Source: Heptranchias perlo (lineage: Eukaryota). Taken from it: a stretch of 64,000 nt of DNA. Location: NCBI RefSeq assembly GCF_035084215.1, contig NC_090340.1, positions 3,844,001-3,908,000 on the forward strand, in the 5' to 3' direction. The notes beneath the pieces were generated by a model. It was not told where the DNA came from and searched no databases. It was given only the letters and a program-made list of their open reading frames with translations. Each line of letters opens with the position of its first letter. The stretch's first letter is position 1. Shown here in pieces: positions 271 to 34,269 of the stretch. A program made the translations under genes and the position numbers.

Positions 271-467
271 TTACATCAGCAGACAGAAACTGCGAAAAAA
301 AATCCCATTTTCATATTGGGCTATGGGCTAAAGGGGTAATTTCAACTTCTGGTGATAGCGTTGACAGGAAAACACTTTTCTTAAACTGCGGACCAGGCAG
401 TTTTCGAGAAACGGTTTAAAGTGACTCAACTGTGAGAAATCTACATCTCAATTTTACTCCATAGCTG

Positions 468-2035
468 CATAGGAACAGTAATAGGCTATTTAGCCCCTCT
501 AGCCTGTTCCGACAGTCAATGAGATCATTGCTGATCTGTATCCTGACTCCATGCATCCGCCTTGGCTCTATAAACTTTAATACCTTTGGCTAGCAAAATT
601 CTATCTATATCAGATTTAAAGTTATTAATTGATCTAACATCTGCTGCGTTTTGTGTAAGAGAGTTCCACACTTCTACCACCCTTTGCTTGAAGAAGTGTT
701 TCCTAACGTCTCTCCTGAATGGCTTGGCTCCGATTTTAAGGTGATGTCCCGTTGCCGTAGACTCCCCCAGCCGCAGAAAAAGTTTGTCTCTACCTACCCT
801 ATCAATTCCTTTCAAAAACATAAAAACCTCAATGAAATCACCCCTTAACCGTTTGTATTCCAGGGAATACAAGACTGGTTAATGCAATCTCTCCTTCTAA
901 TCTAACACTTGGAGCACTGGCAACATTCTGGTGAATCTGCACCGCACTCCTTCCAAGGCCAATATACCCTTTCTAAGGTGCAGTGCCCAGAAATGTACAC
1001 AGTACTCCGGAGGTGGTCTAACAAGGGCTCTGTTTCCCTGTCGCAATACTTCCTCACTGTTATATTCTCGCCCTCCAGTTATAAAGGCAAACATTCCATT
1101 CGCATTTTTGATTATTTTTTGTACCTGACTACTACATTTTAGTGATCTGTGTATATGGACCCCAAAATCTCTCTGTACCTCCACTGTTCCTGGCTTTTCA
1201 CGTTTGGAAAAGTGCTTGGATCTCTCCATTTTTGTTCCAAAATGGATGACCTGACACTTTCCTTCAATGAAACCCATTCGCCACAGGTTTACCCACCAAC
1301 TTAATCTCTCAATGTCTCTTTGTAATTTTATGCTCCCATCTACACAACTTACTATGCCAACAATCTTTGTTTCATCAGCAAATTTGGATATATGTCCCTC
1401 AATTGTGTTCTCTATGTCATTAATAAATGCAGTGAATAGTTGAGGCCACAGCACAGATCGTTGTGGGAAATCACTAATCACTTCCTTGCAATTGGAATAC
1501 ATAGACATTATCCCTACTCTCTGTCTTCTACCGCCTAACCAATCTCCTAACCAGGTCAATAATTTGTTTTCAATTCCATGAGCTTTCATTTGAGCTAGCA
1601 GTCTCTTATGTGAAATCTTTTCAAATGCCTTCTGGAAGTCCATATAATCGACATCTATAGACAGTCCCTTGTGTACTACTTTAATTACTTCCTCAAAAAG
1701 TTCAATTAGATTCCGTAGACATGACCTACCGTTTAAAAATCCACATCAGCTCTCTCCAATCAGTTCAAATTTCTCTAAGTGCTCAGTCACCCTGTCCTTA
1801 ATTATAGATTCCAATAACTTCCCCATAACAGATGTTAGACTAATAGTCTGTAATTCCGTGGTTTCTCTCTCTCATCTTTCTTTAATAATGGAGGTACATT
1901 TGCAATTTTGCAATAGAAAGGCAAAATTCCTGAATTGAGAGAGCTTTGGAAGATTATGGCTGAAGGATTTGAATATCATCACTTACTTCATTCAATACCT
2001 TGGTTTGGAAACCATCAGGTTCTGGGGAGTTGTCT
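468..2035 (-). mobile_element. Degenerate CR1 LINE, 3' half of ORF2 (RT) plus 3' UTR
   Basis: ORFs 897-1643 (MDFQKAF, PQRSVLWP, KFADETK, LVRPPPEYC) and 525-872 (YSLEYKRLRGD, VWNSL) are typical of the CR1 RT and C-terminus; interrupted by stops and frameshifts. Confidence 0.9.
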
Positions 2036-2761: not shown

Positions 2762-2807
2762 TGACGTCACAGATAATTATTAAATTATATTAAATACACA
2801 GCCGCCC
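2762..2807 (+). promoter_or_regulatory. Putative upstream promoter: CRE palindrome TGACGTCA (2762-2769), AGATAA (GATA), CCGCCC (2802-2807)
   Basis: Motifs lie ~70-115 bp upstream of the copy-1 leader ATG (2876) and are identical in copy 2. Confidence 0.5.
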
Positions 2808-2875
2808 ATTCTCCGAAACTTCGTCCATTCGGTTCTCATTCACAAGGGTGATCTACGATACATTCAGTGCACGAT

Positions 2876-3441
2876 ATGTCGATGAGGGTGTCTCTTTGGA
2901 GCATTTGTTCCTTGGGAATTTTGATTCCAGGTAGACTTTTATTTTTGTTGTTATCAATCAATTTTTCCCGAACAAGAAACAGCACATGAAGTCGATCGGA
3001 TATTGTTTTGTGCTGGTTTAATTTGATATAATTGTTATCCTGTCCCTTGCCAGAGGGAAGCATCTAGTTGAGAAAGGCATGTTACTTATGATCATTCAGC
3101 GAGGAAACCATTTCAACAGATGGATAATAATTCTCAGGTTTACGTACATTGAATTACGAATGCATCAATAGAGTGGATGGACGATCTTATTTTAGCGGTT
3201 CAGATCATCTTCCCTGTATATGAATTATTTAACATTGTGGCTTCGTTTGTTGATAGTTGCTGTGCACACTTCAGGCAAATTGATTCCGGATATTGTACAA
3301 AATAAGGCGCTTGAAGTGTCCTGTTCCCTTCGATCTCAATCATTCATTCATAAAGGTTCACTGGTGGAGAGAGGGCAACGGTACCTTTCTGCAAAAAGAG
3401 AATAGAAAACAGTTCCAAATAAAGAAAGGCTGCGCCTATCT
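2876..3441 (+). pseudogene. Truncated duplicate of the Ig gene: intact leader exon 2876-2930 and V-exon remnant 3257-3441
   Basis: Leader MSMRVSLWSICSLGILIP ends in a phase-1 CAG|GTAGAC donor. The V remnant lacks 20 nt (TAAGAGGTTCGAACATAACC in the intact copy), causing a frameshift, and ends before the F-strand Cys. Confidence 0.85.
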
Positions 3442-3457
3442 ACAGTAATTTGGAATT

Positions 3458-3503
3458 TGACGTCACAGATAATTATGAAATTATATTAGATACACAGCCG
3501 CCC
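3458..3503 (+). promoter_or_regulatory. Putative proximal promoter: CRE TGACGTCA (3458-3465), AGATAA, CCGCCC (3498-3503)
   Basis: Motifs lie 70-115 bp upstream of leader ATG 3573 and are conserved between the two duplicates. Confidence 0.55.
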
Positions 3504-3572
3504 ATTCTCAAAGACTTCACCCATTCGGTTCTCAGTCACAAAGGAAGATATACTGTACTTTCAATGCACGAA

Positions 3573-3627
3573 ATGTCCATGAATGTGGCACTTTGGTGCA
3601 TTTGTTCCTTGGGCATTTTGTATCCAG
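3573..3627 (+). CDS. IgSF VJ-C1 receptor, exon 1 (signal peptide MSMNVALWCICSLGILYP)
   Basis: ATG with a purine at -3, hydrophobic core, and a phase-1 donor CCAG|GTAGAC; the same exon is conserved in the duplicate. Alternative in-frame ATGs at 3564 and 3579. Confidence 0.75.
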
Positions 3628-3973
3628 GTAGACTTTTATTTTTGTTGTTATCAATCAATCTTTCCTGAAAAAGAAACAGCGCATGAAGTCGGTATTATAT
3701 TTGAGGTACAATTAGATATTGGTTTATGCTGGTTTAATTTGAAGTAATTTTTATCATGTCCCTTGCCGAAGGGAAACATCAAGTTGAGAAAGGTGATGTT
3801 ATTTATGGTCATTCAATGAGGAAACAATTTCAACAGATGGAGAATAATTCTTAGAGTCAGGTACATTCAATTATTAATGTATCAATGGATTGGATGGAAA
3901 ATCTTATTTTGGTGCTTCAGATCATCTTCCCTGCATATGAATTATTTAATCGTGTGGCTTCTTTTGTACACAG

Positions 3974-4285
3974 TTACTGTGGACACTTCAGGCAAATTGG
4001 ATCCGGATATTGTACAAAAGAAGGCGCTAAGAGGTTCGAACATAACCTTGAAATGTCCTTTTCCCTTCGATGTCAATCATTCAAACATAAAGGTTCAATG
4101 GTGGAGAGAGGGCAACGCTACCTTGCTGCAAGAAGACAGTAGAAAACAGTTCCAAATAAAGAAAGGCCGCGCCTATCTTGATCTCCTGAATGTGCCTGTC
4201 CTGGACAACGGGATGTATCATTGTGCAATTAAAAATCAGAAGGAAAGTTTTGGAAAAGTAACTCGTGTACAAGTTGTTGTATATG
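3974..4285 (+). CDS. IgSF VJ-C1 receptor, exon 2: V-set Ig domain with J-like G strand
   Basis: Acceptor CTTCTTTTGTACACAG|TT (phase 1; alternative AG before 3992). Motifs: ITLKC (B-Cys), VQWWR (C-Trp), AYLDLLNV, DNGMYHC (DxGxYxC), FGKVTRVQVVV (FGxGT-like). Phase-1 donor G|GTAAGT. Confidence 0.9.
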
Positions 4286-5152
4286 GTAAGTATGAGTGGA
4301 GCTGGAAACGTGAAGAGTTTAGTTGCTGTCGATGCTTAAAATGCGTTTGACATTGAATTCCAAGAAGGAAAAGCACTGTGTATAAAAGAGTACAGCTTTC
4401 TACTTGTTCATAACGACACGCGTTCAACTATATGGAAACTTTCCCACTTCCAGAGTCTCTGCAAAATGTGACAACTGACCTATATCTTCAATTGTTACTT
4501 AATGTTATGTTCATCAAGGGAAGTAAATTCAAGGCCGGGAACTAAAATGCTTCTTTCCAATTTTAGCACGAAGTATCCCTATGAAACACTTCGTGGTTAT
4601 TTGCAATATTATAGATCTTTAAAGGTCCAGTGGAAAGAAGAGTTTCGAAGAGGAAGATCCCCATTCCCTCATTTAGACGGCGCACTTCCCGCTTCTGCGA
4701 TCCAGATAATATTACTGAATCGGTGGAACAGAGGAGACACACACGATAAATCAGGTGTCGTAGTCCAGACCGAGGTTTAAACTGGATCCTTTACGTACAA
4801 ATGAAGGAAATGATCTCGATGTAACAACAGAACGCGTTCTGTACTATTTCAACTGTTTTCGCGCAGCATGGCCATTCGTACACCATAATATGAATAAAAA
4901 GAGGTCCAACTTTGCAAATAAATGTTGTTGAATTCAACAGGGATACATCAGTATTGCTGGGGAGGAAATTGGGTAATAATACCTGTAGATACAGTGACAA
5001 AAATTAGGTTGAATTCTATTCAGGATAAATCATAATTACAGATACAACTACGATGCCAGATCACAAGCATTCGTTAATTAATGAAAACAGAGTGTAGATA
5101 AGAGAACAGGCCAAATATTTTGCTTTATCTCTTTTTGTTCTTTACCATTCAG

Positions 5153-5458
5153 CTGTTCCCGCTCCGCTGAAGATTGTCGCCATAACATCCGAAGGGGCTT
5201 CATCCGCTTTTCTGCGACTCGAGTGCAGAACGGCTGCTTTTTACCCGAAGGACTTCAACCTCATCTGGCAAAAAAATGGTACCGAAATCGTGACTGGAGT
5301 TGGAACTGAAGAACAGGTAAACACAGCGGGACTGTATGAAGTTATTAGCTCCATAGAAGAGAAACGGCCAATCGAGCGCGGCACAATTTACACCTGTCAA
5401 GTATATCACGTTTCAAACTCAATTCCAACAAATGACAGCTACACTGTTGGTAACGATG
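5153..5458 (+). CDS. IgSF VJ-C1 receptor, exon 3: C1-set Ig domain
   Basis: Strong pyrimidine tract then CAG|CT (phase 1). LECRTAAFYPKDFNLIW ... GLYEVIS ... YTCQVYH are C1-set signatures. Phase-1 donor G|GTAATA after 5458 (alternative G|GTAACG after 5449). Confidence 0.9.
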
Positions 5459-5910
5459 GTAATATTATTGCACAAGTCGTACTTGTATTGATTTCTGTGT
5501 TTCTTCGCGCAGTAATTGAGTTTCCATCGCAGAAAATGCGGGAAGTGTTTCCTGCAGTTGTTTGCATATCATTCTGTCACATCCGAAGTCTGGGTTTACT
5601 CCATCTCCCCTCAATCGGGTGAAGATTCCCTTTCTGTTGGTTATTGGGATATGATGAGAAATAATTTGGACACAAGCAACAGAGCCAATAGTGAACACCA
5701 GTCCTCAGCATAAGAACATAAGAACATAAGAAATTGGAGCAGGAGTAGGCCAATCGGCCCCTCGAGCCTGCTCCGCCATTCAATAAGATCATGGCTGATC
5801 TGATCCCAACCACAAATCTAAAGAACACAAGAAGTCGGAGCAGGACCCGGCCACATAGCCCCTGGGCCCTCTCCGCCACCCACAGGGCATTGACCGATCC
5901 GAACTCAGCT

Positions 5911-8826
5911 TCATGTCCAATTTCCTGCCCGCTCCCCATAACCCCTAATTCCCTTTACTTCTAGGAAACTGTCTATTTCTGTTTTAAATTTATCTAATGA
6001 TGTAGCTTCCACAGCTTCCTGGGGCAGCAAATTCCACAGACCTACCACCCTCTGAGTGAAGAAGTTTCTCCTCATCTCAGTTTTGAAAGAGCAGCCCCTT
6101 ATTCTAAGATTATGCCCCCTAGTTCTAGTTTCACCCATCTTTGGGAACATCCTTACCGCATCCACCCGATCAAGACCCTTCACAATCTTATATGTTTCAA
6201 TAAGATCGCCTCTCATTCTTCTGAACTCCAATGAGTAGAGTCCCAATCTACTCAACCTCTCCTCATATGTCCGCCCCCTCATCCCCGGGATTAACCGAGT
6301 GAACCTTCTTTGTACTGCCTCGAGAGCAAGTATGTCTTTTCTTAAGTATGGAGACCAAAACCGTATGCAGTATTCCAGGTGCGGTCTCACCAATACCTTA
6401 TATAACTGCAGCAATACCTCCTTGTTTTTATATTCTATCCCCCTAGCAATAAAAGCCAACATTCCGTTGGCTTTCTTGATCACCTGCTGCACCTGCATAC
6501 CAACTTTTTGATTTTCTTGCACTAGGACCCCCAGATCCCTTTGTACTGCAGTACTTTCCAGTCTCTCGCCATTAAGAAAATAACTTGCTCTCTGATTTTT
6601 CCTGCCAAAGTGCATAACCTCACATTTTCCAATATTATATTGCATCTGCCAAATCTCCGCCCACTCACCCAGCCTGTCTATATCCCCTTGCAGATTTTTT
6701 ATGTCCTCCTCACTCTCTACTTTCCCTCCCATCTTTGTATCATCTGCAAATTTTGATATGTTGCACTCGGTCCCCTCCTCCAAATCGTTAATATAGATTG
6801 TAAAGAGTTGGGGACCCAGCACCGACCCCTGTGGAAAACCACTGGTTACTGGTTGCCAGTCCGAAAATGAACCATTTATCCCAACTCTCTGCTTCCTGTT
6901 TGATAACCAATCCTCCACCCATGCCAGAATATTACCCCCAATCCCGTGATTTTTTATCTTAAGTAATAATCTTTTATGTGGCACCTTGTCGAATGCCTTC
7001 TGGAAGTCTAAATACACTACGTCCACTGGTTCCCCTTTATCCACCCTATACGTTATATCCTCGAAGAACTCAAGCAAATTTGTCAGACATGACTTCCCCT
7101 TCATAAAGCCATGCTGACTTTGTCCTATTAAATTATGCTTATCTAAATGTTCCGTTACTGTCTCCTTAATAATAGACTCCAAAATTTTACCCACCACAGA
7201 TGTTAAGCTAACTGGCCTATAATTTCCAGCCTTCTGCCTACTACCCTTTTTAAATAACGGTGTTACATTAGCAGTTTTCCAATCTGCCGGGACCTCTCCT
7301 GAGTCCAGGGAATTTTGGAAAACTATCACCAAAGCATCCACAATCCCTACTGCCACTTCCCTCAAGACCCTAGGATGGAAGCCATCAGGTCCAGGAGATT
7401 TATCCGCCTTGAGTCCCATTATTTTACTGAGTACCATCTCTTGAGTGATTTTAATCGTATTTAGCTCCTCCCCCCCGAGAGTCCCCTGTTTGTCCAGTGT
7501 TGGGATATTCTTAGTGTCCTCTACTGTAAAGACTGAAACAAAATATTTGTTCAGCATTTTTGCCATCTCCATGTTTCCCACCATTAATTTCCCGGTCTCA
7601 TCCTCTAAGGGACCTATGTTTGCCTTAGCCACCCTTTTTCTTTTTATATAACTATAGAAACTCTTGCTATCTGTTTTTATATTTTTTGCTAATTTCTTTT
7701 CATAATCTAACTTCCCTTTCTTAATCAATCCTTTAGTTACTTTTTGCTGTCTTTTGAAGAATTCCCAATCTTCTATCCTCCCACTAAGTTTGGCTACCTT
7801 ATATGTCCTTGTTTTTAGTCGGATACTATCCTTGATTTCTTTACTAAGTTTGGCTACCTTATATGTCCTTGTTTTTAGTCGGATACTATCCTTGATTTCT
7901 TTACTTAGCCACGGGTGGCTGTCATTTCTTTTACACCCTTTTTTCCTCAGTGGAATATATTTATTTTGAAAGTTGTAAAATAACTCCCTAAATGAACACC
8001 ACTGCTCATGTACCGTCTTACCCTTTAATCTATTTTCCCAGTCCACTTTAATCAATTCCGCTCTCATACCATCATAGTCTCCTTTATTCAAGCTCAGTAC
8101 GCTTGTTTGAGAATCAACCTTCTCACCCTCTAATTGGATATGGAATTCAACCATGTTGTGGTCGCTCGTTCCAAGGGGATCCTTAACTAGGACATTATTA
8201 ATTAATCCTGACTCATTACACAGGACCAGGTCCAAGGTTGCCTGCCCCCTTGTAGGATCAGTTACATACTGCTCAAGAAATCCATCCCTGATGCACTCAA
8301 TGAACTCGTCCTCAAGGCTGCTCTGCCCAATTTGATTTGTCCAGTTAATATGATAATTAAAATCCCCCATAATTATGGCTGTTCCCTTATTACATGCCCC
8401 GACTATCTCCTGATTAATACTTCTTCCAGCAGAGTTGCAACTATTAGGAGGCCTATATACTACGCCCACTAATGTTTTTTTTCCCTTATTATTCCTTATC
8501 TCCACCCAAACTGTTTCATTATCTTGATGCTTTGTCCCAATATCATTTCTCTGTATTACAGTGATTCCTTCCTTTATTAACATAGCCACCCCACCTCCCC
8601 TTCCTTCCTGCCTGTCCTTCCTGATTGTTAAATACCCTGGCATATTTAATTCCCAGTCGTTGTCACCCTGCAGCCATGTTTCTGTAATGGCCACAAGATC
8701 ATACCCATACGTAGTTATTTGTGCCGTTAACTCGTCCATTTTATTACGAATGCTACGTGCATTCAGATAAAGAACTTTCAAATCTGTTTTGTGACGCTTA
8801 GTTCCTGCTTTTTCCTTTTTTAACAC
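5911..8826 (-). CDS. CR1 ORF2: APE endonuclease plus reverse transcriptase, 971 aa, uninterrupted
   Basis: YLNARS, ITETW, YRPP, GDFN, LDLVL and SDH (APE); YRPVSLTS, LDFQKAFD, PQGSVLGP and FADD (RT). Confidence 0.95.
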   Translation of the reverse strand: MLKKEKAGTKRHKTDLKVLYLNARSIRNKMDELTAQITTYGYDLVAITETWLQGDNDWELNMPGYLTIRKDRQEGRGGGVAMLIKEGITVIQRNDIGTKHQDNETVWVEIRNNKGKKTLVGVVYRPPNSCNSAGRSINQEIVGACNKGTAIIMGDFNYHINWTNQIGQSSLEDEFIECIRDGFLEQYVTDPTRGQATLDLVLCNESGLINNVLVKDPLGTSDHNMVEFHIQLEGEKVDSQTSVLSLNKGDYDGMRAELIKVDWENRLKGKTVHEQWCSFRELFYNFQNKYIPLRKKGCKRNDSHPWLSKEIKDSIRLKTRTYKVAKLSKEIKDSIRLKTRTYKVAKLSGRIEDWEFFKRQQKVTKGLIKKGKLDYEKKLAKNIKTDSKSFYSYIKRKRVAKANIGPLEDETGKLMVGNMEMAKMLNKYFVSVFTVEDTKNIPTLDKQGTLGGEELNTIKITQEMVLSKIMGLKADKSPGPDGFHPRVLREVAVGIVDALVIVFQNSLDSGEVPADWKTANVTPLFKKGSRQKAGNYRPVSLTSVVGKILESIIKETVTEHLDKHNLIGQSQHGFMKGKSCLTNLLEFFEDITYRVDKGEPVDVVYLDFQKAFDKVPHKRLLLKIKNHGIGGNILAWVEDWLSNRKQRVGINGSFSDWQPVTSGFPQGSVLGPQLFTIYINDLEEGTECNISKFADDTKMGGKVESEEDIKNLQGDIDRLGEWAEIWQMQYNIGKCEVMHFGRKNQRASYFLNGERLESTAVQRDLGVLVQENQKVGMQVQQVIKKANGMLAFIARGIEYKNKEVLLQLYKVLVRPHLEYCIRFWSPYLRKDILALEAVQRRFTRLIPGMRGRTYEERLSRLGLYSLEFRRMRGDLIETYKIVKGLDRVDAVRMFPKMGETRTRGHNLRIRGCSFKTEMRRNFFTQRVVGLWNLLPQEAVEATSLDKFKTEIDSFLEVKGIRGYGERAGNWT

Positions 8827-8909
8827 TTTACCTATTACTCCATACCTTCTGTCCCTTCCTGTTACGCTTTCCTCTCTCTCCCTGCTCAGGTTCCCAACCC
8901 CCTGCCACT

Positions 8910-9197
8910 TTAGTTTAAACCCTCCCCAACAGCACTAGCAAACACTCCTCCTAGGACAGCGGTACCGGCCCTGCCCAGGTGCAGACCGTCCGGTTTGTAC
9001 TGGTCCCACCTCCCCCAGAACCGTTTCCAGTGTCCCAGGAATTTGAATCCCTCCCCCTTGCACCATTCCTCTAGCCACGTATTCATTTGAAATATCCTCC
9101 TATTTCTACTCTGACTAGCACGTGGCACTGGCAGCAATCCTGAGATTACTACCTTTGAGGTCCTATTTTTTAATTTACCTCCTAACTCTCTAATTTC
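8910..9197 (-). CDS. CR1 ORF1 C-terminal fragment (SGNH/esterase-like)
   Basis: VVISGLLPVP ... N.WL..WC ... DGLHL (DxxH). Truncated at the 5' end; the track ATG at 9200 is junction-derived. Confidence 0.8.
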   Translation of the reverse strand, partial: EIRELGGKLKNRTSKVVISGLLPVPRASQSRNRRIFQMNTWLEEWCKGEGFKFLGHWKRFWGRWDQYKPDGLHLGRAGTAVLGGVFASAVGEGLN

Positions 9198-10717
9198 CAT
9201 AATTCATGCGAACTGGCAAATAATATTGCAAGTTCACTGAGAGGGCACGGTGAGGGGTGATGCCGGAAAACGAACCATGCGTCATTGGGATTGGAATAGT
9301 TAGTGAGGGTTGACGGCGTGGACTGGGGGAATTGATTTCTTTCACGTTCCCGCAGCCATGTCGCAATCCAAGGTCATTCCCGCATCATCAGATTCACAGT
9401 GCGGAGCCGTTGACAATGCACCAAGTATGGAATACTTAGGTTGCTCTTGTGGAAAGATGGAAAAAAGTTTTCGTGAGCATTTGCTCCGAATGGCAATTCT
9501 AGCGCATTTGTAAATACGCCCCATTGTCTTTAAGAGTTCGCCCTAAATAAGCAATTGTTATTTAATGTTATGTTTATCAAGGAAAGCGGTATGAAGGGAA
9601 CGTGGCAGTGGAAGGGTGAATAGGTCGGAGTTGGTCGAGCAGCAAGTGGGTAGGTGAAGCATGAATAATTGCGGAGAGAATGGGAAAGCAGCCACTTAAG
9701 GCAAGTGTTTCCCTGCAATATTACCTAAAATATAGGCTGCAGCCATTAGTTAGTCATTTCTCTTTTACAACACACTGTGCCAATCGTCACCTACCGTTCG
9801 CGCAATAATGCAGAGAAGATAGCAAAAGAGGTTAGAAAGAGAAACAAAGAGAACTTAGGGGCAGGTAGCAAAAGAGGAAAGAGAACGATTCAGAAATAAA
9901 AGAGGGGAGAAAGAGAGAGAAACAACAATGACAAGAGAACTGACAGGGATAAGGGAGAGACGACGACCTTGAAATGACATGGCGTACAAGTGATCTAGCG
10001 TCAGAATTCGGATGCGAGCCCAGCGAAAACCCCAAGAAACTAACACGCCTGAACATGCAGACACGAGAATGATCGCCTAGAATTCTCCGGCTGGATATCG
10101 GCCAATGCAGCGGAGAATCATCATAAGCGTTAGGAAGGAGATCAGTGGAACGAGCGTAAATTCGTCCCTAATTGTAGACGTTCAGCAGAAAATGTAAAAT
10201 AGGACAACGTCAACCCACGGCAGTCGACACAGCTGGAATGTCAGTCGGTGAAGGATCTGCCAGGAAATGCAAGACTTTTACGGTTTTACAATCAGGAAAC
10301 ACGACGTCTAACATCAGTATTCGCAAATTTAAGATTTATCGAACGTGTGTCACGAAGTATGCACGGATCCCTCCTCGCTCAAGTACGTGAAGATGTCTCA
10401 TGCTCATTGTTTCTAGCGACATTTAAAATCATTTCTTTTAGAATGTATTTATATTATTGCGAGAAACAACGGACAGAGAAAATCTTCACCAAAGCATTGA
10501 CGATATCACGACACACGGCCAGCAATGGAATTCTTATTCCAGTAGATTGTATAACTTCAAATGATTTTCTGTGGTTTTGTTATATAAAAAAAGAAAGATA
10601 ATGGGACAAGCATGAAGTGGATAATGTTTGATTCCGTGGCATAGTCAGAAATATCATCAGATTGACATGGTTTCTGGTTTTGAGTGTGTATCATTGACCA
10701 ATTTATACCTTTTCCAG

Positions 10718-10836
10718 ACGATCATTCTGTCCTACCCGTCCACCAGATTTATCGATCTACAGTGGGGTTACTGGTCATTATTCTACTGACGATAATCATC
10801 CTCAACCATGTTACATCAGATAACTTTAAAAGGTAA
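10718..10836 (+). CDS. IgSF VJ-C1 receptor, exon 4: stalk, transmembrane and short tail (DDHSVLPVHQIYRSTVGLLVIILLTIIILNHVTSDNFKR*)
   Basis: Acceptor ATACCTTTTCCAG|AC in phase 1 continues the frame; hydrophobic TM. AAG|GTAAGA donor after 10832 overlaps an in-frame TAA (10834-10836); AATAAA at 10926-10931. Confidence 0.7.
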
Positions 10837-11019: not shown

Positions 11020-12975
11020 AAAATAAGAAATAGGAGCAAGAGTAGGCCATCCAGATCATGGCTGATCTTCTACCTCCACTTTCCCAGCCTATCCCCATAT
11101 CCCTTGATTATCTTAGAGTACCAAAACCTATCGATCTCAGTCAGAATATACTCAACGACTGAGCATCCGCAGCCCACTGGGGTAGAGAATTCCAAAGATT
11201 TGCAGCCCACTGTGTGAAGAAATTTCTCCTCATATTAGTCCTAAATGATCGATCCCTTATCCTGAGAATATGCCCCCTAGGTCTAGACTGTCCACCCAGT
11301 AGAAGCAGCCTCTCAGCATCTACCGTGTCAAACCCACTCAGATTCGAATATGTTTCAATGAGATCAAACATCATTCTCAAAACTCCAGGAAAACCCATTC
11401 TGCTCAATCTCTCCTCATGCACCAATCCTCTCATCCCAGGAATCAATCCCGTTAACCTTCGTTGAAACACATCTGAGGCAATTGTATCCTTCCTTAGGTA
11501 AGGAGGCCAAAACTGTACACATTACACCAGGTGTGGTCTCACCAAAGCCCTGTACAATTGCAGCAAGACTTTCTAACTCTTGTACTCCAACCCCCTTGCA
11601 ATAAAGGTCAACATGTCATTTGCCTTCCTAATTGCTTGCTGTGACTTCCTGTGTTTCGTGTACAAGGACGCTGAAATCCCTCTGAACACCAACATTTAAT
11701 AGTTTTTCACCGTTTACAAAATGTTAAGCTTTTCTATTCTTCCTACCAAAGTGAATAACTTCACATTTCACCACATTATACTCCATCTGCCAACTTCTTG
11801 CCCACGAACTTAACCTGCCTTTATCCCCTTGCAGTCCCTTTCCCACCTAGCTTTGTATCGTTAGCGCAATTGGATACATAACACTGGATCCTTTCGTCTA
11901 AATAATTAATATGGATTTTAAATAGCTGCGGCCCAAGCACTGATCCATGCGGCTCCCCAGTAGTTGCAGCCTGCCAACCTGAAAATGGCCTATATATTCC
12001 TCGTCACTGTTTTCTGTCCGTGAACCAATCCTCAATTCCTGCTAATATATTACGCCAACCCCATGGGCCTTTAACTTGTGTAAAAATCTTTTGTGTGACA
12101 CGTTATCGAATGGCTTTTGAAATTTCAAATATACTACATCCTCTGGTTCCCCTTTCTCTACCGTGCTAGTTCGATCATCATCAAACAATAATAGAGTTGT
12201 CAAACACGATTCCCCTTTCATAAAACCATGTTTACTCTGCCTAATCATATTATGTTTTGCTAAGTGCCACCTTACCGCGTCCTTAATAATAGATTCCAGC
12301 ACTTTCAGGACTACTGATGTCGTACTAACTGGACTGTGGTTCCCTGCTTTCTCTCTCCCTGATTTCCTGAATAGCTCTGTAACGTTTGCTACCTCCCAAT
12401 CCACTGGGACAGTTCTAGAATCTAGGGAACTTTGGAAGATCACAACCAATGCATGCACTATCTCTGCAGCCACCTCTTTTAGAACCCTAGGATGCAGGTC
12501 AGCAGGCCCAGGGGATTTTTTTGTTTTTAGTCCCTTAATTGCTTCATTACTTTTTCTTTACTAATATTAATTAATTTAAGCTCCTCACTCTCATTGAACC
12601 CTGGGTTCCCCATTATTTCTGGTGTGTTTTTTTATTCTTCTATTGTAAGGGCAGATGGAATATATTTGTTCAACGCATCTGTCATTTCCTGATTCCCCAA
12701 TATAATTTCTCCTGTCTCAGCCTCGAAGGGAATTCACATTTACTTTCGCTCCTCTCTTCCTTTTTACATACTTTACATACAATCTGATTTAATCTGTCTA
12801 TTTTCTCCCTCTTCCGTTTTTTTGACTTCCTTTGCTGGTTTCTAAATCGTTCCTAATCCCCAGGCTTACTGCTCTTCTTGGTAAAATAATAAGCCTCTTC
12901 TTGTAATCCAATACGACACTTAACCTATATAGTAAGCCAGGGATGCATCATTTTTACCGTCGAGTTTTTATTTCT
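11020..12975 (-). mobile_element. Degenerate CR1 LINE (linker, RT and 3' end)
   Basis: ORF fragments 12042-12473 and 11141-11470 are homologous to the intact ORF2; tail-like TAAGAAATAGGAGC at ~11025. Confidence 0.9.
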
Positions 12976-13029
12976 GAATGAAAATTGTATTAGTAAAGAA
13001 TTATGAAAGATTTATTGAAATGATTTTGA

Positions 13030-14265
13030 GTATTTAACTGGTCGAATAGACAAGGGAGAACCAGTGCTTGTGGTTTATTTAGATTTTCAGAAGGTCTTTG
13101 ATAAAGTCCCACATAAGAGGTTAGTGTGCAAATTTAAAGTGCATGGGATTGGTGGTAATTTACTGGCATGGATTGAAAATTGGTTCACAGACAGGAAACA
13201 GAGAGTAGGAATAATTGGATCTTTTTCGGGGTGGCAGGCAGTGACTAGTGAGGTACCGCAGGGATTAGTGCTGGGGCCCCAGCTATTCACAATATATATC
13301 AATGATTTGGATGAGGGAACTAAATGTAATATTTCCAAGTTTGCTAACGACACAAAACTAGGTGGGATAGTGAGTTGAGAGGAGTATGAAAAGAGGCTTC
13401 ATTGCGATTTAGACAAGTTGAGTGAGTGGGCAAATACATGGAGGATGCAGTCTAATGTGGATAAATGTGAAGTTATCCACTTCGGAAGGAAAAACAGAAA
13501 GGCAGAGTATTATTTAAATGTTGATAGATTGGGGAATGTTGTTGTACAAAGGAACCTGGGTGCCCTTGTACACCAGTCATTGAAAGCAAACATGCAGGTG
13601 CAGCAAGCAGTTAGGCAGGCAAATGGTATGTTGGCCTTCATTGCAAAACGATTTGAGTGTATGTGCAAGGATGTCTTACTGCTGTTATACAGGGCCTTGG
13701 TGTGTCCACACCTGGATTATTGTGTGCAGTTTTGGTCTCCTTACCTCAGAAAGCATATGCTTGCCACAGATGGAGTACAGTGAATGTTCACCAGACTGAT
13801 CGGTAGGATGGCAGGACTGTCGTATGAGGAGAGATTGGGTAGACTTGGCCTGTATTCACTCGAATTTCGAAGAATGAGAGGGTATCTCATTGAAACACGT
13901 AAAATTCTGACAGGGCTAGACAGAGTGGACGCAAGGAGGATGTTTCCCCTGTTCGAGGTGGGGTTGTCCAGAACGAGGGGTCACAGTCTCAGAATACGGG
14001 GTCGGACATTTAGGATTGAGGTGAGGAGAAATTTATTCTCTCAGAGGCTGGTGAACCTGTGGAATTCTGGACCATAGAAGGCTGTGGAGGCCAAGTCACT
14101 GAATGTATTTAAGAAGGAGCCAGATAGAATTCTCGAAACAAAAAGCTTCAAGGGGTATGGGGAGAGAGCGGGATAGACGATCAGCCAAGACCATATTAAA
14201 TGGCAGAGCAGGCTCAAAGGGCCGAATGGCCTACTCCTGATCCTATGTTCTATGTTTCTATGTTC
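13030..14265 (+). mobile_element. CR1 LINE 3' part (RT to tail)
   Basis: ORFs 13064-13378 (YLDFQK, VPQG), 13418-13783 and 13784-14077; tail TCCTATGTTCTATGTTTCTATGTT. Confidence 0.92.
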
Positions 14266-15261: not shown

Positions 15262-17650
15262 AAAAAATGTATATACTTCAATGCACGAAATCTAGTGAAT
15301 AAGGCAGATGAGCTGAGGGCAAAGATAGATACGTGGAAGTATGATATCATAGCTAATACTGAAGTATGATATCATAGCTATTGTGGCTTAAAGATTGACT
15401 GGAATGGCAGCTCAACATTCCTGCTTACAGGGTATTCAGTCGAGATAGGGAGTGAGATGAAATAGGATGTGGGTGGCAATGTTGGTTAAAGAAACAATTA
15501 CAGTCGTGTGGTGGCATTATTTATGAGAAGGATCATCAAATGAGGCCATATGGATTGAGCTCAAGAACAAATAAGGGGCAATCACTCTGCTGGAAGTGGT
15601 GTCAACCAGTAAAGGGATATTGGAGAGCAACTATTTAGGTAAATTTCTGAGACGCGCAAAAACAATAGGGTAGTAATAGTAAGGGATTTCAACTACCATA
15701 ATATTAACTGGGATAGAATCAGTGTAAAAAGCATAGAGGGCGCAGAATTCTTGAAATTAATTCAGGAGAACATTTTCAGGCAGTACATAGCAAGCTCAAC
15801 TGGAGAGAGAGAGCATCTCTGGACTTAGTTTTAGGGAATGAAGATGGGCAGGTGGAAGAAGTATCAGCGGGAGAGAATTTTGGCGGTAGTTATCATAATT
15901 CAGTTGGATTTAGAGCAGTTAGAGTAGAGTAACTAAGGAAAAAGTAGGGCCTATTAGAGACCAAAAAGGTAACGTCTGCGTGGCGGAAGAAGATGAGTAT
16001 GATTGTGAATGAATACTTTGCGCATGTCTTTACAAAAGAGGGGGACATTGTATTTAAGGAGGAGGAGTTCGAAATATTGGATGGGATAAACATAGTGAGG
16101 GAGGAAGTATTCAGGGGATGAGCATCTTTGAATATAGATGAATCGCTAGCCCCGGACGAAAAGTATCCCAGGCTGTTAGTAGAAGCAAGGGAAGATATAG
16201 TGGATGCTCTGACCATCAGTTCCCAATCCTCTCTGGCAACAGGTGCGTGCCAGAGGACTGCTAGCGTTGTGCCACTGTTTAAAAAGAGAGAAAGGAATAG
16301 ACCGAGTAATTATAGGCCAGTCAGCCTAACCTCGGTGGTGGCCAAATTATTGGAAACAAATATGAGTGACAGTATAAATCGTCATTTGGAAAGGCAGGGA
16401 TTAATGAAGGACAGTCTGCAGGTATTTGTTTCGTGAAGGTCGTATTGACCAACTTGATTGCATTTTTTGAGGAGATAACGAGGAGGGTCGATGAGGGTAG
16501 CTCGTTAGATGTCGTCTACATAGCAAGGCTTTTGACACGGTCCCACATGGCAGACGGGTCAGAAAAGTAAAAGCACATGGGATCCAAGGGAGTGTGGCAA
16601 GTTGAATCCAAAATTGGCTCTGTGGAATGAAGCAAAGGGGAATGGTCGATGGGTGTTTTTGTGACTGGAAGGCTGTTACCACCGCGATTGCGCAGGGCAC
16701 AGTACTAGGTCCCTTGCTTTTTGTGGTATTTATCAATTATTTGTACCAAAATGTAGACTGCATGAGTAAGTAGTTGGCAGATGATACAAAAATCGGTTGT
16801 GTGGTTGATAGTGAGGAGAACAGCTGTAGACTGCAGCAGAAAAGTGGCAAATGGAATTCAATCTGGAGAAGTGTGAGGTAATTCATTTTTGGGAGGGCAA
16901 ACAAGGCAAGAGAATACACAATAAATGGAAGGATACTGAGAGGTGTAGAGGAACAGATGGACCTCGGAGTGCACATCTACAGATCCCAGAAAGTAGCAGG
17001 ACAGGGAGATAAAGCGGTTAAGAATGCCTACGGGATACTTTCCTTCATTAGCCAAGGTATAGAATATAAGAATAAGGAGGTTCTGCTTGAACTGTAGAAA
17101 ACATTAATTAGGCTAGAGCGTGACAGGATTTCCTGACAGGAAAGATGTGATTGCACTAGATAGGGTACAGAGCAGATTTACGAGGATGTTGCAAGGACCG
17201 GAGAATTTTAAGTATGAAGTAAGATTGGTTAGGCTGGGGTTGTTTTCTTTGGGACAGAAGAGGCTCAGGAGAGATTTAATTGAGGTGTATAAAATTATGA
17301 GGGGCCTGGATAGAGTGGATAGGAAGGACATGTTTGCCTTAGCAGATGGGTCAATAACCAGGGGGCATAGATTTAAATAATTGCTAGAAAGATTAGAGGG
17401 GAGCTGAGGAAACATTTTTCATCCAGAAGGTGGTAGGGGTCCGAAGCTCATTTGCTCAAACGGTCATAGAGGCAGGAAACCTCTTCGCATTTAAAGGGTG
17501 ATTGAATGTGCACTTGAAGTGTCGTAACCTACAGGCCAAGGACGAAGAGCTGGGAAGAGTCATTCGTCTGGATTGTTGCTTTTTCGGCCGGCACAGACGT
17601 GATGCACCGAATGGCCTCCTCCTGCACCATAATATCTATGATTCTATGAA
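15262..17650 (+). mobile_element. Degenerate CR1 LINE with internal deletions (EN start to tail)
   Basis: YFNARNLVNKADEL at the start, NYRPVSLTS (ORF 16128), LEKRRLR-like motif (ORF 17120), tail TCTATGATTCTATGA. Confidence 0.9.
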
Positions 17651-20065
17651 CAGCACCCCATTTTTCTACGAACACATGAAGCACTTTCAGGTTCTGCTCT
17701 CCTCTGCCAAAACTGCTCACAACACCAGGATCATCCTGGAATGCGAAGATGACACACGGTTTCACTGCTGCACTATCTTTTAAAGCCCCACTCCACTGCC
17801 CGCTCAACCCTCACCTCCAACAACAAGTGCGATGAGCTCATGGACATTTATGTCGACTAAGTTTGAGCGCCTCTGTTCAATTAACTCTGCTGCTTTCCTC
17901 CCTCCCCCTTGGCCACCAAACTAAACATCACCCAAAAATTCCCACTACACTCGCCCTTAACTCACATCATTCTGTAGTTTTTCTCCTATCTCCCCTAATG
18001 CCATCTCCGAAATCATCTTGTCCACGAGACCCACCTCTTGCTTCTGCACCCCTGCTTCCCAGCAAACTACTGACCACACAACTTTCATTCCTGGCCGCCA
18101 TGCTATCTGATATTTCCAACAGTTCCCTCCTCTCAGGTACCGTAACGCTCCAATTAGGATCTCCATCATTACCACCTCATTTAAAACCCACCCTTGAACT
18201 CTGTGTCCTGGCAAACTGCCGCCCAATCTCCAAATTCAAGTCCATCTCCAAATCCTTGAACTTGTTGTCCCCATCCAAATCCATGCCCACTATTCCTGTG
18301 ACTCCATGTTTGACCATCCCAAAACAGGCTACCGCCCCGGCCACAGCATGAAATGGTCCGTACCAAGTCACAAATGACATCCTATGTGACTGTTACTGAG
18401 GTCAGCTATCCCTCCTCATCCTGCCCGACATGTCTGCAGCCTTTATCTCGTTTGACCACACCATCCTCCTGAACCACTTCTCCTCTGGGTAGGACTGCCC
18501 TCCCCTTGCTCTATTCTTATCTGTTATGATGCAGCCAGAGGCCCTACTGCAATGGCTTCTCTTCCCGCTCCCCAACCATTTCAGCTAGAGTCCCCAAGGA
18601 TTTTACTTGCCCCCCTCCTATTTCTCATTTACATGCTGCCACATCTGAAAATACAATGCCACATTCCACATGTACGCTGATGATAAGAAAATAAGAACAT
18701 ACTCAGCTCTCCATCATTATCACACCTTTTGACTCGTTCATTGCCTTTGATTTAACATGCTGCTTGTCAGGCATCCAGCCTTGTTTGCACAGAAATTTCT
18801 TGCAATTGAATATTGGAAAGACTGACATCATCGGCTCCACAACTTAAGTTTAACTGGAAGTGAGGGGGAGGCCCGAGCTGTCGGCTGCCAGTCAGCTGAT
18901 CCGATGTGGGAGCTGTAAACTCCAGGAGGTAAGTTCCTTCCGCTCACCCACCCCAGGTCCCGAACTCTGCCTCCCGCTGGCCCCAATCTCTAGCCTCCCC
19001 CGGCGCCCATCTCCAGCCTCCCCGTGGCCGCGATCTCCAGACTCACGCACTCTGAATCGTGGCCCGGAACCGATGCTCCCATTCTGATGCTGGTGGCAAT
19101 TCCCGCTGGGGACGGCTGCGGCATCCTGCTGTCAGACATGGCTCCCGCCAGCCAAACAGGCTGTCAATTTGTCAAGCCCAACAAGATTCAAATGAGGCAC
19201 TGCCGTTCAGATCGGTAGGCCTTCCACGGCCCCAACTTTGCCGGCTTCTCAACCCGCCCCCACCGCACCATATCCAGCTCCCCATTAATATTGGGGCCAT
19301 TGTATTCCGTCCTGCCACAAACTCAGTTCCCCAGCCACAGACCTCCGGCCAATGTCTGCGGTTAAACCAAACTTTTCGCAAACTTAATGTCCTATTTGTC
19401 CCTAAGGGGAGCTTCCAATCCTATAATCATCTCAATCACCAAGACCACCAACTTTCACCTTATTAATATTGCCCGTTTACACCCCTGTCTCAGCCCATCT
19501 GCTGCTGAAACCCTCATCCATGCTTTTCTTACTTACAATCTCGACGATTGCAAAGCTCTCCTGGCTGATCTGAAACCTTGCACCCTATTAAGCTGATCCA
19601 AACCTCTGCTCCCCTTATCCTAACCCATACATCCAATTCCACTATGCTCACTAAACTACCTTGACTCCGGGTCCGGCATTGCTCCCAATTTAAAATCCGC
19701 ATCCTTCTGATCAAATCCTTCAATGACCTTGCTCCTCACTATCTCTGTAACCACCCACAGCAGTACGACTCAGAGAACTCTGTGCTCCTCCAATTCTGGA
19801 ATCTTGCACGTCCCCAATATTCCTCGGACCAACACTGGCGGCCGTGCCTTCAGCTGTGCAGGCCCTAATTTCTGGAATTCCCTGCATAAATCCGTCCCTC
19901 TCTCTACCTCTTTCTCCTCCTTCACGGCGCTCGTTAAAACCTACCAATTGGACCAAGCTTTTGGTCACCTGCCCTAATATCTGTGACTTACTGTCATTTT
20001 TTTTTTCAGAAAGCGGTCCTGTGAAGTGCCTTGGGACAATATACTATGTTAATGGCGCTATATAA
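17650..20065 (+). mobile_element. L2-clade LINE (degenerate), interrupted by a ~470-bp GC-rich insert at ~18826-19295
   Basis: C-rich strand. Remnants of KVTNDIL, DLSAAFD/DHTILL, GVPQG and FHMYADD (~18664-18684); GRAFS..P..WNSL; L2-type 3' end GTGAAGTGCCTTGGGAC...GGCGCTATATAA. Confidence 0.8.
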
Positions 20066-22335: not shown

Positions 22336-23499
22336 CTTTGGTACAGTTGCAATGACTGATGAAGTATCCGAAATCATCGCCCTTAAATTCATTGGCCCCG
22401 AATTTCTTCGGGGTTTTCTCGATCTCCCTGCGCAAACCCAGCCAAAACGGTGTAGATGGCTGTTTTCAACCGTTTACGCTGTTTCTCTGGGATTCTGCTG
22501 TCTCCAGTCGAAGTGGTTGCTGTAGATCAGGGGAACCCCCTGCGGAATTTCTGGAACTTTCTATCCTGAAATTTTGAATTAGTTGTATACATCTCTTAGA
22601 GTACAAGAGCCCGTGGTAGAATAGCCCGGCATCTGGAAGATTTTGAACACAGAGATCCAGAAACTTTTGGTTAAAACGTTTTTAAAAGTTTGGAACTGGA
22701 ACAGTAAGCAATGAAAACATTGATCAAATCCTCTCTTATTAGAAAAACCCCAATAACGCCAGAGTAATTTGCGAAAACCGTGGTCCCCATTATCAATCCA
22801 TCAATGTAGCTGGCGATGAATGGGGGATATTTCCCCGGTATAGAGAGGAATTATAAGATAATGAAGGGCACTTTAATCAGATGAACATAATTATTTTGAA
22901 AGACTATAATTGACGTGAAATTAGAACTTCATCGGCACAGGTGTGGACTCGTACATTACGTTTAAAATATGTGATTAATAAAAGGGCTGATTATTTCCAG
23001 GCGATTGTAAGCTGCACCAGCGATGTAGAATGCTCCAAGCTTTAAGACGAAATGGCAATTTCTCAGAAGTGAAGACAGCCACTGGATGAAACGCAACAGA
23101 GTATGCTGGAATAGGCAACAATATATTCTACCTTCAAAGAGATCGTGTAATTGTCACCAACGGATCTATATATAGTTAAGGAAAATGTGACACTCAATAA
23201 CAGCCAGCCAGATTACGGAACTTTTCCACAATGCGTTTAAAAGGAGCTTCAGAAGCGTTTTCTGCTGTCTCTGTTTCAACTAATGTCACTTGTGAATAAA
23301 TTGACTGCTAATGAAGAGTATGCACGGAAATCAGTAATTTAACTGAAATAAGACGATCCAATTACACAATAAGTAGCGCATAGAATATTTATGTAAAATG
23401 TGCAAATTAGAGTTGCATGGTACAGAGTTTTTAAAGTTTATTCAGAAAAGGGAACGACTAGGAACAGGTTTATCAAATTTCCCAATCTGAAAAAGATTA

Positions 23500-25277: not shown

Positions 25278-25915
25278 TTTTAGAAGGAAGAATGAGGAGA
25301 GGCAATATAAACTAAATGGTATAATTTAAAAGGGGACACACGAACAGAGGGACCTGGGACTTCACATGTACAAATCTTTGAAGTGGTAGGACAAATCGAT
25401 AGGGCTGTTAATAAAGCCATGGGATCCTTGTCTTTAAAAATAGAGGCATTGCACACACACAAAAGGAATTTATGACAAATCTTTATAAATCACTCGTTAG
25501 ATCTCAACTGGAGTATTGCGTCCAATTCTGGGTCCCGCACTTTAGGAACGATGTGAAGGCTGAGATGGTGCAGATGAGATTTCCTAGAATGATACCAGGG
25601 AAGAGGTATTCAGTTATGTGGAGAGACCAGCGAAGTTGGGATTGATGCCCTTGGGGATCAGAAAGTTAAATGAAGATTTAATAGAGGAGTTCAAAATTGT
25701 GAGGTGTTTTGAGACAGTGAATAAGATAAAACTGTTTCCACTAGCAGGAGGGTCGGTAACCAGAGGACACATGTGTAAGGTAATTGGCAAAAGAATCAGG
25801 GGGTAGATGAGGTGAAATTTTTATGCAGCGAGTTGTTGTGATCTGGTTTATACTGCCTGAAAGGATGGTGGAAGCAGATTTCACAGTCACTTTCAGAAGG
25901 GAATTGAATATATAA
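25278..25915 (+). mobile_element. CR1 3' fragment
   Basis: LVRSQLEYCVQFW-like DNA and ORF 25618-25806 (DLIEEFKI, TRGH). Confidence 0.85.
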
Positions 25916-26103
25916 TGTACATCCTTTTTGCTGAATGACCTCCATCTTTGCTGTATGATTTATGATTCTGTGTAATGTTTCATGATAATTGGAGAGCAAA
26001 TGACTAAGATAATCAAGATGTGGAGATGCCGGTGATGGACTGGGGTTGACAATTGTTAACAAATTTACAACACCAAGTTATAGTCCAGCAATTTTATTTT
26101 AAA

Positions 26104-33940: not shown

Positions 33941-34269
33941 TTCTGATGCTCCTGGTGTTACCATGATGGTGTCAATTCGGGAATTTCAATGTTTGAACCA
34001 AATTGTGGTAAGTTCACAGGGATATTTGCCAACCTTGGATTTGTGTGCATCTTGGCGGCGATCTTGGTAGTGAGGATGTCCACATGATCTTGCTGCTCAC
34101 GGTGTTTGAGGTCTCACTAACGCAACGGACTTTTGAAGCAAGATTGGTGAGTTACTGCTAAGAATCCCGTAGATAGTATATACTGCAGTCACCTTGCGGT
34201 GGTGTATGGAATTGTGATAAGAGTCTGGTAGCAAAGACAATTAACAACCAACCTGCTTCTCTTGGATCA

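Follow-up and report, generated by a model that had tools for sequence, protein, structure and literature searches.

A germline-joined VJ-C1 gene of the sevengill shark Heptranchias perlo as a probable activating member of a large paired-receptor family

Overview

The window (64,000 nucleotides of the sevengill shark Heptranchias perlo, the host thus being a cartilaginous fish, as an earlier note made from the letters had supposed) contains a gene that probably codes for one of the activating receptors in a large paired family of sharks and would signal via an adaptor of the CD3zeta/FcRgamma type. Its product would be a type I membrane protein composed of a V domain joined in the germline, a single C1 domain, and a transmembrane (TM) segment that bears an Arg and is followed by almost no tail. 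The gene is one of about 80 to 100 copies on one chromosome, and the ectodomains of this family are common to forms with a charged TM segment and a short tail and to forms with a Tyr-motif tail. The earlier note rightly placed the gene in a germline-joined, non-rearranging VJ-C1-TM family, but missed the paired family of about 100 loci that explains it.

A wider reading, put forward tentatively, is that sharks and rays possess an undescribed germline VJ-C1 paired-receptor complex of about 100 loci on a human-16q-type chromosome. It would be functionally equivalent to KIR/LILR and stand as an old sister group to SIRP, with V-only relatives surviving among turtles and lizards. If true, this would prove that the VJ-C1 module expanded for germline innate recognition, parallel to its RAG-split use in Ig/TCR, and would link the shark locus to unnamed reptile receptors. 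Which germline receptors activate or inhibit NK-like and myeloid cells of sharks is, to our knowledge, largely open, and a large Arg-TM/ITIM family provides named candidates for ligand screens, for example with shark MHC class I or CD47. No larger collection of intact single-exon VJ-C1 genes is known to us, and the family feeds the debate over the precursors of RAG-split receptors.

Gene structure and predicted product

The leader, V, C1, and TM exons described in the earlier note were all confirmed, with AG/GT ends and phase-1 junctions (Table 1). The ectodomain consisted of one C1 domain only, behind a VJ-type V domain, and Pfam recognized both V-set (36.4 bits; cut-off 26) and C1-set (37.3 bits; cut-off 21). 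The codon of Arg237 occupies positions 10753-10755. Translated up to the TAA at 10834-10836, the open frame gives the 263 amino acids reported earlier. That stop falls within an AG/GTAAGA splice donor, which is present in 14 of the 15 genes with the Arg-bearing TM type (class A, see below) and is used in RNA of the class-A paralog L067; just before this donor, AAA replaces the stop that the closest paralogs carry. In L067, RNA supports a fifth exon, and the region of this exon has a counterpart in the window that is 65% identical over 493 columns, with the acceptor in register. Given the stop inside the donor and this homologous exon at 23001, the spliced product is likely a protein of 265 amino acids ending in KRRL, so that the exons and the frame of the earlier model stand and its end probably does not. 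Upstream, a tandem copy that is 82% identical contains frameshifts and stops.

Table 1. Features of the VJ-C1-TM gene and its surroundings in the window
Feature	Position	Strand	Support
Decayed tandem copy: promoter/leader (2876-2930) and part of V exon (from 3257)	2762..3441	+	
Exon 1, signal peptide, ATG 3573, phase-1 donor	3573..3627	+	Same junction spliced in paralog L067 RNA
Exon 2, short domain of VJ type, joined in the germline, with in-exon G strand and Cys46-Cys102; family GxG lost	3974..4285	+	
Exon 3, C1-set domain	5153..5458	+	
Exon 4, TM exon of class A (activating type), with Arg237 at outer end, Asn-His at inner end, phase-2 donor after 10832	10718..10832	+	
Predicted exon 5, completes frame R-R-L-stop, then 3' UTR, AATAAA 23295-23300	23001..23300	+	Homology to L067

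Family size and chromosomal setting

In a genome search, chromosome C18 held 102 of the 112 C1 matches, which correspond to 99 loci, along with 81 of the 82 V matches; the related loci on this chromosome fall into two clusters. The clusters flank the human-16q-type genes NUDT21 and AMFR; left of the clusters, no genes were identified in 200 kb (cluster A) or 100 kb (cluster B; 150 of 171 candidates scanned). None of the 15 chemokine matches was on C18, and CIAPIN1 and COQ9 were placed on contig C1169, so these searches did not link the clusters to the chemokine locus. Similarly, none of the 43 MHC class I matches was on C18, all of them sitting on small high-numbered contigs. The gene of the earlier note, for which a paralog count and a check of synteny with the MHC had been proposed, turned out to belong to about 100 loci with 16q-type neighbours. 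Its automatic public names are inconsistent (SIRP-like, NCR3LG1-like, tapasin-related, CD276, and H-2 class I). No description of a shark cluster of this kind was found in the literature searched, and supplementary gene lists may already name the family; the earlier suggestion of a possibly uncharacterised gene apparently holds.

Two TM classes on shared ectodomains

The TM type was determined in 80 stretches of 10 kb around the loci and in the window, resulting in 60 typed genes, namely 15 of class A (Arg-bearing and short-tailed), the window gene included, and 45 of class B (uncharged TM). Class-A TM exons contained Arg in 14 and His in all 15 cases. Tyr-repeat exons followed the TM exon in 18 of the 45 class-B genes versus none of the 15 class-A genes (Fisher p=0.003), whereby the stretches held no Tyr exon for 27 class-B genes and, for all but one of the class-A genes, the downstream search reached just 0.8-5.9 kb. 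Full class-B models (P0010, P0011, and P0181) combined a single C1 domain with two repeats that together carry four Tyr motifs. As no locus had both TM types, their alternative use within a single gene was rejected. A search of the PDB with the TM-class profiles returned nothing meaningful.

On a tree of the V domains from 55 genes, the distribution of TM classes required 12 changes versus 12.6 after shuffling, at least 11 being forced by well-supported branches. TM type is thus unclustered on the tree and genes of opposite types have near-identical V domains, which is the pattern of paired activating and inhibitory receptors. Indeed, the DNA identity of the A/B pair L088/L103 (91.8% over 4,075 bp) stops before the TM exon, and that of the pair L094/L108 is limited to the V and C1 exons. 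The V domain of the inhibitory-type paralog L070 is 83% identical to that of the window gene. Pairwise dN/dS values of 0.58 (V) and 0.47 (C1), from 19 pairs each, indicate that the family is under purifying selection overall; at such coarse resolution, no arms race was apparent.

Concerning the mechanism, Arg237 would pair with an adaptor of the CD3zeta/FcRgamma type, and the inhibitory partners would recruit SHP-1/2, presumably in NK-like or myeloid leukocytes. According to PMC6514059, NKp30 and NKp46 pair with CD3zeta/FcRgamma by an Arg-Asp contact. In the shark genome, a CD3zeta-type TM exon was located at C11:52.32 Mb and the search did not find an FcRgamma exon; a complex predicted for the TM exon and a dimer of CD3zeta-type TM segments scored 0.05, which speaks neither for nor against pairing. 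Duplication and gene conversion may keep the ectodomains alike, which would equip the activating copies against pathogens that bind to inhibitory ones. The likeliest ligand, presumably common to inhibitory paralogs such as L070, would be a surface protein of the shark itself or its microbial mimic.

Relation to known receptor families

Large clusters with opposite signalling on shared ectodomains are found among LILR/PIR/CHIR, KIR, CEACAM, and CD300 too, and LILRA and NKp46 have an Arg-type activating TM segment as well; we know of no VJ-C1 ectodomain in any of these families. The best-scoring non-chondrichthyan V domains found came from multi-V receptors of turtles and lizards (P0069, P0123, and P0252-P0254), which share the short V domain, the TM Arg..acidic spacing, and ITIM-tailed forms with the shark family, but contain two to six V domains and no C1 domain. 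Profile searches of the PDB with the V and C1 alignments and a search of 1.84 billion proteins were dominated by multi-domain proteins; of the 150 matches listed in the latter search, 10 were looked up by name.

A distinct if doubtful possibility is that the family corresponds, in sharks, to a non-rearranging family already in print, such as PRARP, Xenopus VJC1, or a non-MHC homologue of NKp30, and would thus be an expansion of it. PRARP (reports on PRARP and Xenopus VJC1: Fu 2019; Ohta 2019) is said to be a VJ(-C1) protein with ITIM/ITSM tails. Reportedly, PRARP and VJC1 resemble the shark genes as non-rearranging VJ-C1 genes with such tails, but occur in few copies and are not known to include many activating members or to form a cluster in sharks. 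The reptile relatives share the Arg..acidic TM register or have ITIM tails, and chemokine exons, in one case of CX3C type, are fused to two of their gene models, which points to the same 16q-type region. Against this, the reptile relatives examined are V-only by the family profile, the literature searched holds no such shark cluster, and the tree places an NKp30-like ray V domain apart from the family. NKp30/NCR3 shares a non-rearranging VJ domain, a Gly-Asn-Gly-like G strand, and a TM Arg for CD3zeta/FcRgamma; unlike the window gene, it has no C1 domain, and it is MHC-linked (PMC6514059; PMC10751288). The latter source also mentions several VJ-C1 genes in tetrapods, in favour of a described counterpart.

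Rather unlikely is an assignment to a cartilaginous-fish SIRP branch, either moved or a 16q ohnologue of the chromosome 20 SIRP locus, with the window gene as SIRP-beta equivalent. SIRP has a V-C1-C1 ectodomain, SIRP-alpha has four Tyr in its tail, the SIRP genes are located beside NSFL1C in human, and human 16q and chromosome 20 are paralogous. A germline VJ-type V plus C1 ectodomain, paired inhibitory and activating forms, and the four-Tyr inhibitory tail of class B speak for this assignment, as do the automatic SIRP-like names and a 'SIRBL' cluster at rank 2 in the ESM Atlas. In the V tree, moreover, a lungfish SIRP-like V domain and the reptile family grouped with the shark genes (94/86), albeit in a three-way fork with one lungfish SIRP-like protein as only reference. 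In contrast, the shark family has one C1 domain instead of two, about 100 loci on a 16q-type chromosome, and a shorter V domain (Cys-Cys spacing of 54-59 versus 66 in the lungfish SIRP-like V). With the family profile, reptile V domains reach as much as 61 bits, compared with 22-30 for SIRP-like V domains, and no V or C1 exon was found in 190 kb around the NSFL1C-type gene on C22. Finally, the activating TM of the shark family uses Arg, unlike the DAP12-type coupling of SIRP-beta given in PMC3533184.

Expression and state of the window copy

RNA contigs from one sample matched the class-A paralog L067 with zero mismatches across four GT..AG junctions (leader-V, V-C1, C1-TM, and TM-exon 5). The sole contig that fitted the window copy proved to be L067, and none from its own exons occurred in three runs of one sample. 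Likewise, no RNA data set was listed as containing positions 3500-5500 of the window; neither result carries weight on the expression of this copy. The splicing proposed earlier is therefore seen at the same junctions in a paralog, not in a transcript of the window copy. A duplicate (L057) that is 99.5% identical to the window copy has a C1 frameshift and has lost a donor; together with the lost usual stop and the loss of both G-strand glycines, this suggests that the window copy may be drifting. These features and the decayed V copy upstream would fit a recently dead or dying pseudogene inside a functional family. Such a state is nevertheless unlikely, as the splice sites, both disulfides, the core Trp, Arg237, and the poly(A) signal are all intact and the stop loss costs just four extra residues.

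V domain and comparison with antigen receptors and B7 proteins

The V exon of the window gene includes its own G strand and terminates at a GT donor. No recombination signal sequence (RSS) was found at up to three mismatches near this exon or in any of 61 family V exons, in agreement with the earlier description of a germline-joined, non-rearranging V domain. The single perfect heptamer, 89 nt into the V-C1 intron (4374-4380), is inverted, has a 5/9 nonamer, occurs at roughly chance frequency, and cannot serve the V exon. A rearranged or processed Ig/TCR gene is ruled out by the intact introns and the family-wide joined V. In the family, the J-type GxG is positioned at Cys+12/+14, with both Gly in 41 of 55 exons and Phe at Cys+9 in 4 of 55. 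The window copy has neither glycine (Val114 and Arg116); its 'FGKV' lies two residues off the family GxG, leaving an effect of an FGxG-to-V change on V-V dimerisation, as once proposed, without support. Its Cys-Cys spacing is 56 (54-59 in 57 of 58 measurable family exons), shorter than in antigen-receptor V domains, and modelling indicates that a C'' strand is likely lacking. The first matches of the predicted V fold were CRTAM/I-set domains. For one paralog, a model of the V-C1 tandem agreed better with extended B7-type monomers (TM-score by query 0.48-0.61; best superpositions PD-L1, ICOSL, B7-H6, and BTN) than with Fab/TCR chains (0.30-0.35).

These structural data do not support the earlier view of the window gene as a chain of a non-rearranging antigen-receptor-like dimer conserved since before RAG, which is highly improbable. 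It accords with the leader-VJ-C1-TM exon plan with phase-1 introns, the charged TM residue, and a C1 profile search headed by Ig constant and UrIg2 domains. Besides the short V domain and the poor fit of Fab/TCR chains, a stalk without cysteine, a location off the MHC class I scaffolds, and rapid copy turnover argue against it. UrIg/UrIg2 are likewise elasmobranch, non-rearranging VJ plus C1 proteins, but are described in PMC12227049 as dimers with at least three C1 domains, encoded in the MHC or IgH/TCR complex, as opposed to the one C1 domain of the window gene. Tapasin has its own N-terminal domain and an ER-retention tail. B7-family or tapasin-related ligands instead of receptors, to which the names NCR3LG1-like, CD276, and tapasin-related and the B7-type superposition point, are likewise highly improbable, given the absence of a tapasin N-terminal domain or KKxx end from the sequence (the trees being without B7H6 and tapasin), the short V with a J-type G strand (BTN/B7-type V domains compared had a Cys-Cys spacing of 74-76 and no GxG), and the paired Arg-TM/Tyr-tail design.

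The window gene and its V domain

The window gene is real and is an activating-type member of a non-rearranging VJ-C1 paired-receptor family of elasmobranchs that comprises roughly 100 loci. Its four exons had been correctly placed by the earlier note: the splice sites are canonical, the junctions are phase-1, and 263 aa are encoded if the frame is read to the TAA codon behind the transmembrane (TM) exon. Exon 2 encodes a V-set and exon 3 a C1-set domain, both over the Pfam cut-offs, and no second V or C1 exon was found elsewhere in the window. The V exon is non-rearranging, as proposed before, with its own G strand inside exon 2, a donor at the exon end, and no nearby RSS at up to three mismatches. 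At this threshold, none of 61 family V exons had an RSS; at four mismatches, five of the 61 did, versus 74 of 2,000 random windows, three of these five being due to one inverted heptamer in an intron, present in near-identical copies. This V-C1 intron element is a perfect heptamer and has a spacer of 23 bp and a 5/9 nonamer; it is about as frequent as expected by chance and common only to the window gene and the paralogs L056 and L057. A decayed leader and V copy is located directly upstream of the window gene, and the rest of the window consists mostly of interspersed repeats, belonging to several mutually similar families (64-87% identity).

The Cys-Cys spacing was 54-59 in 57 of the 59 intact family V exons; of the other two, one had a spacing of 77 and the other gave no value. 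In 55 family V exons, the stretch between the second Cys and the donor is 21 residues long; +12 and +14 are both Gly in 41 of these, Phe occupies +9 in four, and Val occupies +12 in two, those of the window gene and L057. These counts place the FGKV motif, previously taken for a J-type bulge, two residues off the GxG of the family, both glycines of which are lost in the window gene. In an AlphaFold2 model made with 52 family rows (pLDDT 84.6), the window V domain has seven strands and only a short bridge as C-to-D link, and it is predicted to lack a C'' strand. CRTAM, neuregulin, IgLON, and titin domains ranked highest in Foldseek. The full model of P0003 (pLDDT 80, pTM 0.61), a paralog with the same TM type, gave TM-scores by query of 0.48-0.61 on PD-L1, ICOSL, B7-H6, and BTN and of 0.30-0.35 on Fab and TCR chains, this being a single-chain model with an uncertain inter-domain angle.

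Two TM classes and the C-terminus

Two classes of TM exon occur behind the shared ectodomains. In class A (15 genes, the window gene included), an Arg marks the outer end in 14 genes, an Asp or Asn and an invariant His follow 17-18 residues later, and the tail is a few residues long. In class B (45 genes, of which profile searches found 41 and tblastn four), the Arg motif is missing and the TM exon has, as a rule, a phase-1 donor. Tyr-repeat exons were found behind the TM exon in 18 of 45 class-B versus 0 of 15 class-A genes (p=0.003; fetched DNA only, with limited search room), and full class-B models contain two pairs of Tyr residues, with a spacing of about 23 residues in each pair. When the 55 genes with both an intact V exon and a TM label were placed on a V tree, TM class needed 12 changes, as many as with shuffled labels (12.6). 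Pairs such as L074/L075, L076/L078, L077/L055, L103/L088, and L108/L094 combine nearly identical V exons with opposite TM classes; within such pairs, DNA identity ends ahead of the TM exon or covers the V and C1 exons only, as would be expected under exon exchange or gene conversion. Pooled dN/dS ratios (V, 0.58; C1, 0.47) do not support positive selection on these domains. A Lys is present in the TM segment of the class-B paralog L052.

The TM Arg of NKp30 and NKp46 pairs with an Asp of CD3zeta or FcRgamma (PMC6514059), and the inhibitory SIRP-alpha signals via SHP-1/2 (PMC3533184). Read with these precedents as the activating half of receptor pairs, the window gene probably encodes an activating receptor, which would have an NKp30/NKp46-type adaptor partner, and its inhibitory counterparts would have the same ligand-binding domain. 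The adaptor, the cell type, and the ligand of the product are inferred. The shark family would work like SIRP and LILR.

Concerning the C-terminus, the 263-aa frame of the earlier note exists, but splicing to a fifth exon predicts a different end. Contigs from a presumed RNA run match the paralog L067 with zero mismatches and lack all four of its introns, each bordered by GT..AG, that between the TM exon and exon 5 among them; this last junction also appeared in another run of the sample. The homologue of this fifth exon in the window has its acceptor in register, with AATAAA at 23295, and a spliced product of 265 aa is predicted. The donor behind the class-A TM exon was retained in 14 of 15 genes; TAA directly precedes it in seven of the 15, and the window gene has AAA there. 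In L067, Tyr replaces the second V cysteine, and the canonical disulfide is absent.

Family size and genomic position

The C1 exon gave at least 112 matches in the genome, 102 of them on the chromosome carrying the family (C18), corresponding with 99 loci once the parts of three split exons were joined: 63 at 2.70-5.97 Mb (cluster A), 35 at 14.5-15.6 Mb (cluster B), and one at 19.0 Mb. Similarly, the V exon gave at least 82 matches, 81 on C18, three of which are decayed upstream copies. Both counts are lower bounds that include pseudogenes and near-identical blocks; 66 V and 71 C1 exon candidates were recovered from 80 fetched 10-kb stretches and the window. L057, located 838 kb away, shares 99.5% identity with the window gene, has a C1 frameshift, and has lost the TM donor. 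Two pairs of near-identical family blocks were present on C18, with offsets of about 800-838 kb and about 300 kb. Such repeated blocks, those with the window gene and L057 included, may reflect real recent duplication, or an assembly artefact or uncollapsed haplotype. The divergent family gene L109 stands alone, 3.4 Mb past cluster B, and has a long V-C1 intron; no TM exon was found in the 20 kb fetched. Two paralogs on C18 agree with Heptranchias perlo protein models at every residue of the V, C1, and TM exons.

As to MHC linkage, raised earlier as a check, none of 43 MHC class I matches lies on C18, all being on small high-numbered contigs. This chromosome carries ZFHX3 (homeodomain matching ATBF1) and, about 11 kb from the end of cluster B, a NUDIX_2 gene and next to it a RING/G2BR gene, which are NUDT21 and AMFR. 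OSGIN-like and SLC38A8-like genes come after cluster A, and all five are human 16q genes. The 16q-type genes CIAPIN1 and COQ9 are on a separate contig, C1169, which may belong to C18. An NSFL1C-type gene is located on C22, without V or C1 exons within the 190 kb fetched around it, and a CD3zeta-type TM exon is located on C11. No description of the C18 cluster was found among the papers that could be searched; its novelty is uncertain.

Coordinates of features in the window and elsewhere in the genome
Feature	Sequence	Positions	Strand
Exon 1, leader	window	3573-3627	+
Exon 2, V	window	3974-4285	+
Inverted RSS heptamer	window	4374-4380	
Exon 3, C1	window	5153-5458	+
Exon 4, TM	window	10718-10832	+
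TAA of 263-aa frame	window	10834-10836	+
Exon 5, predicted	window	23001	+
AATAAA	window	23295	
Interspersed repeats	window	460-2034, 5700-9200, 11100-14260, 16040-21760, 25285-25916, 33170-35775, others beyond	
Tyr for second V cysteine	L067	1251-1562	
TM with Lys	L052	4098-4226	
L109	C18	19024693-19032676	
Near-identical blocks	C18	~3.46-4.02 vs 4.26-4.85 Mb	
Near-identical blocks	C18	14.68-14.75 vs 14.98-15.05 Mb	
CIAPIN1 and COQ9	C1169	154312-262117	

Relatives in other species

Close relatives, with inconsistent automatic names, were found in Scyliorhinus, Stegostoma, Heterodontus, Pristis, Mobula, Hemitrygon, and Hypanus. The family does not fit SIRP in domain number or genome position. 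Outside the chondrichthyans, the V domains with the highest scores found were those of unnamed multi-V proteins of turtles and lizards, mostly at 39-61 bits, versus 22-35 bits for SIRP-like and NKp30-like V domains. These proteins have either an Arg..Glu TM segment in the register of the shark family or Tyr-motif tails. Chemokine exons are joined onto two of the gene models, which suggests that the genes lie in the 16q chemokine neighbourhood. In a 42-row V tree, which excluded most family rows as well as near-identical repeat domains and had no named SIRP, PRARP, B7H6, tapasin, Ig, or TCR among its rows, the shark family formed one clade (92/93); this clade, the reptile family, and a lungfish SIRP-like protein made up a fork without settled order (94/86), a ray NKp30-like protein being outside.

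The reptile multi-V paired-receptor family (P0069, P0123, P0184, and P0250-P0254) includes misleading automatic names (titin-like, pIgR-like, and NCAM2), and fusions with chemokine or selectin exons occur in some of its models. Among the shark relatives, Heterodontus P0012 and P0014 are isoform models without C1 exon (V-TM-tail), and P0013 has a duplicated Tyr-repeat block. Stegostoma P0007 combines a charged residue in an otherwise inhibitory-type TM segment with Tyr motifs, and is possibly a dual-signalling form.
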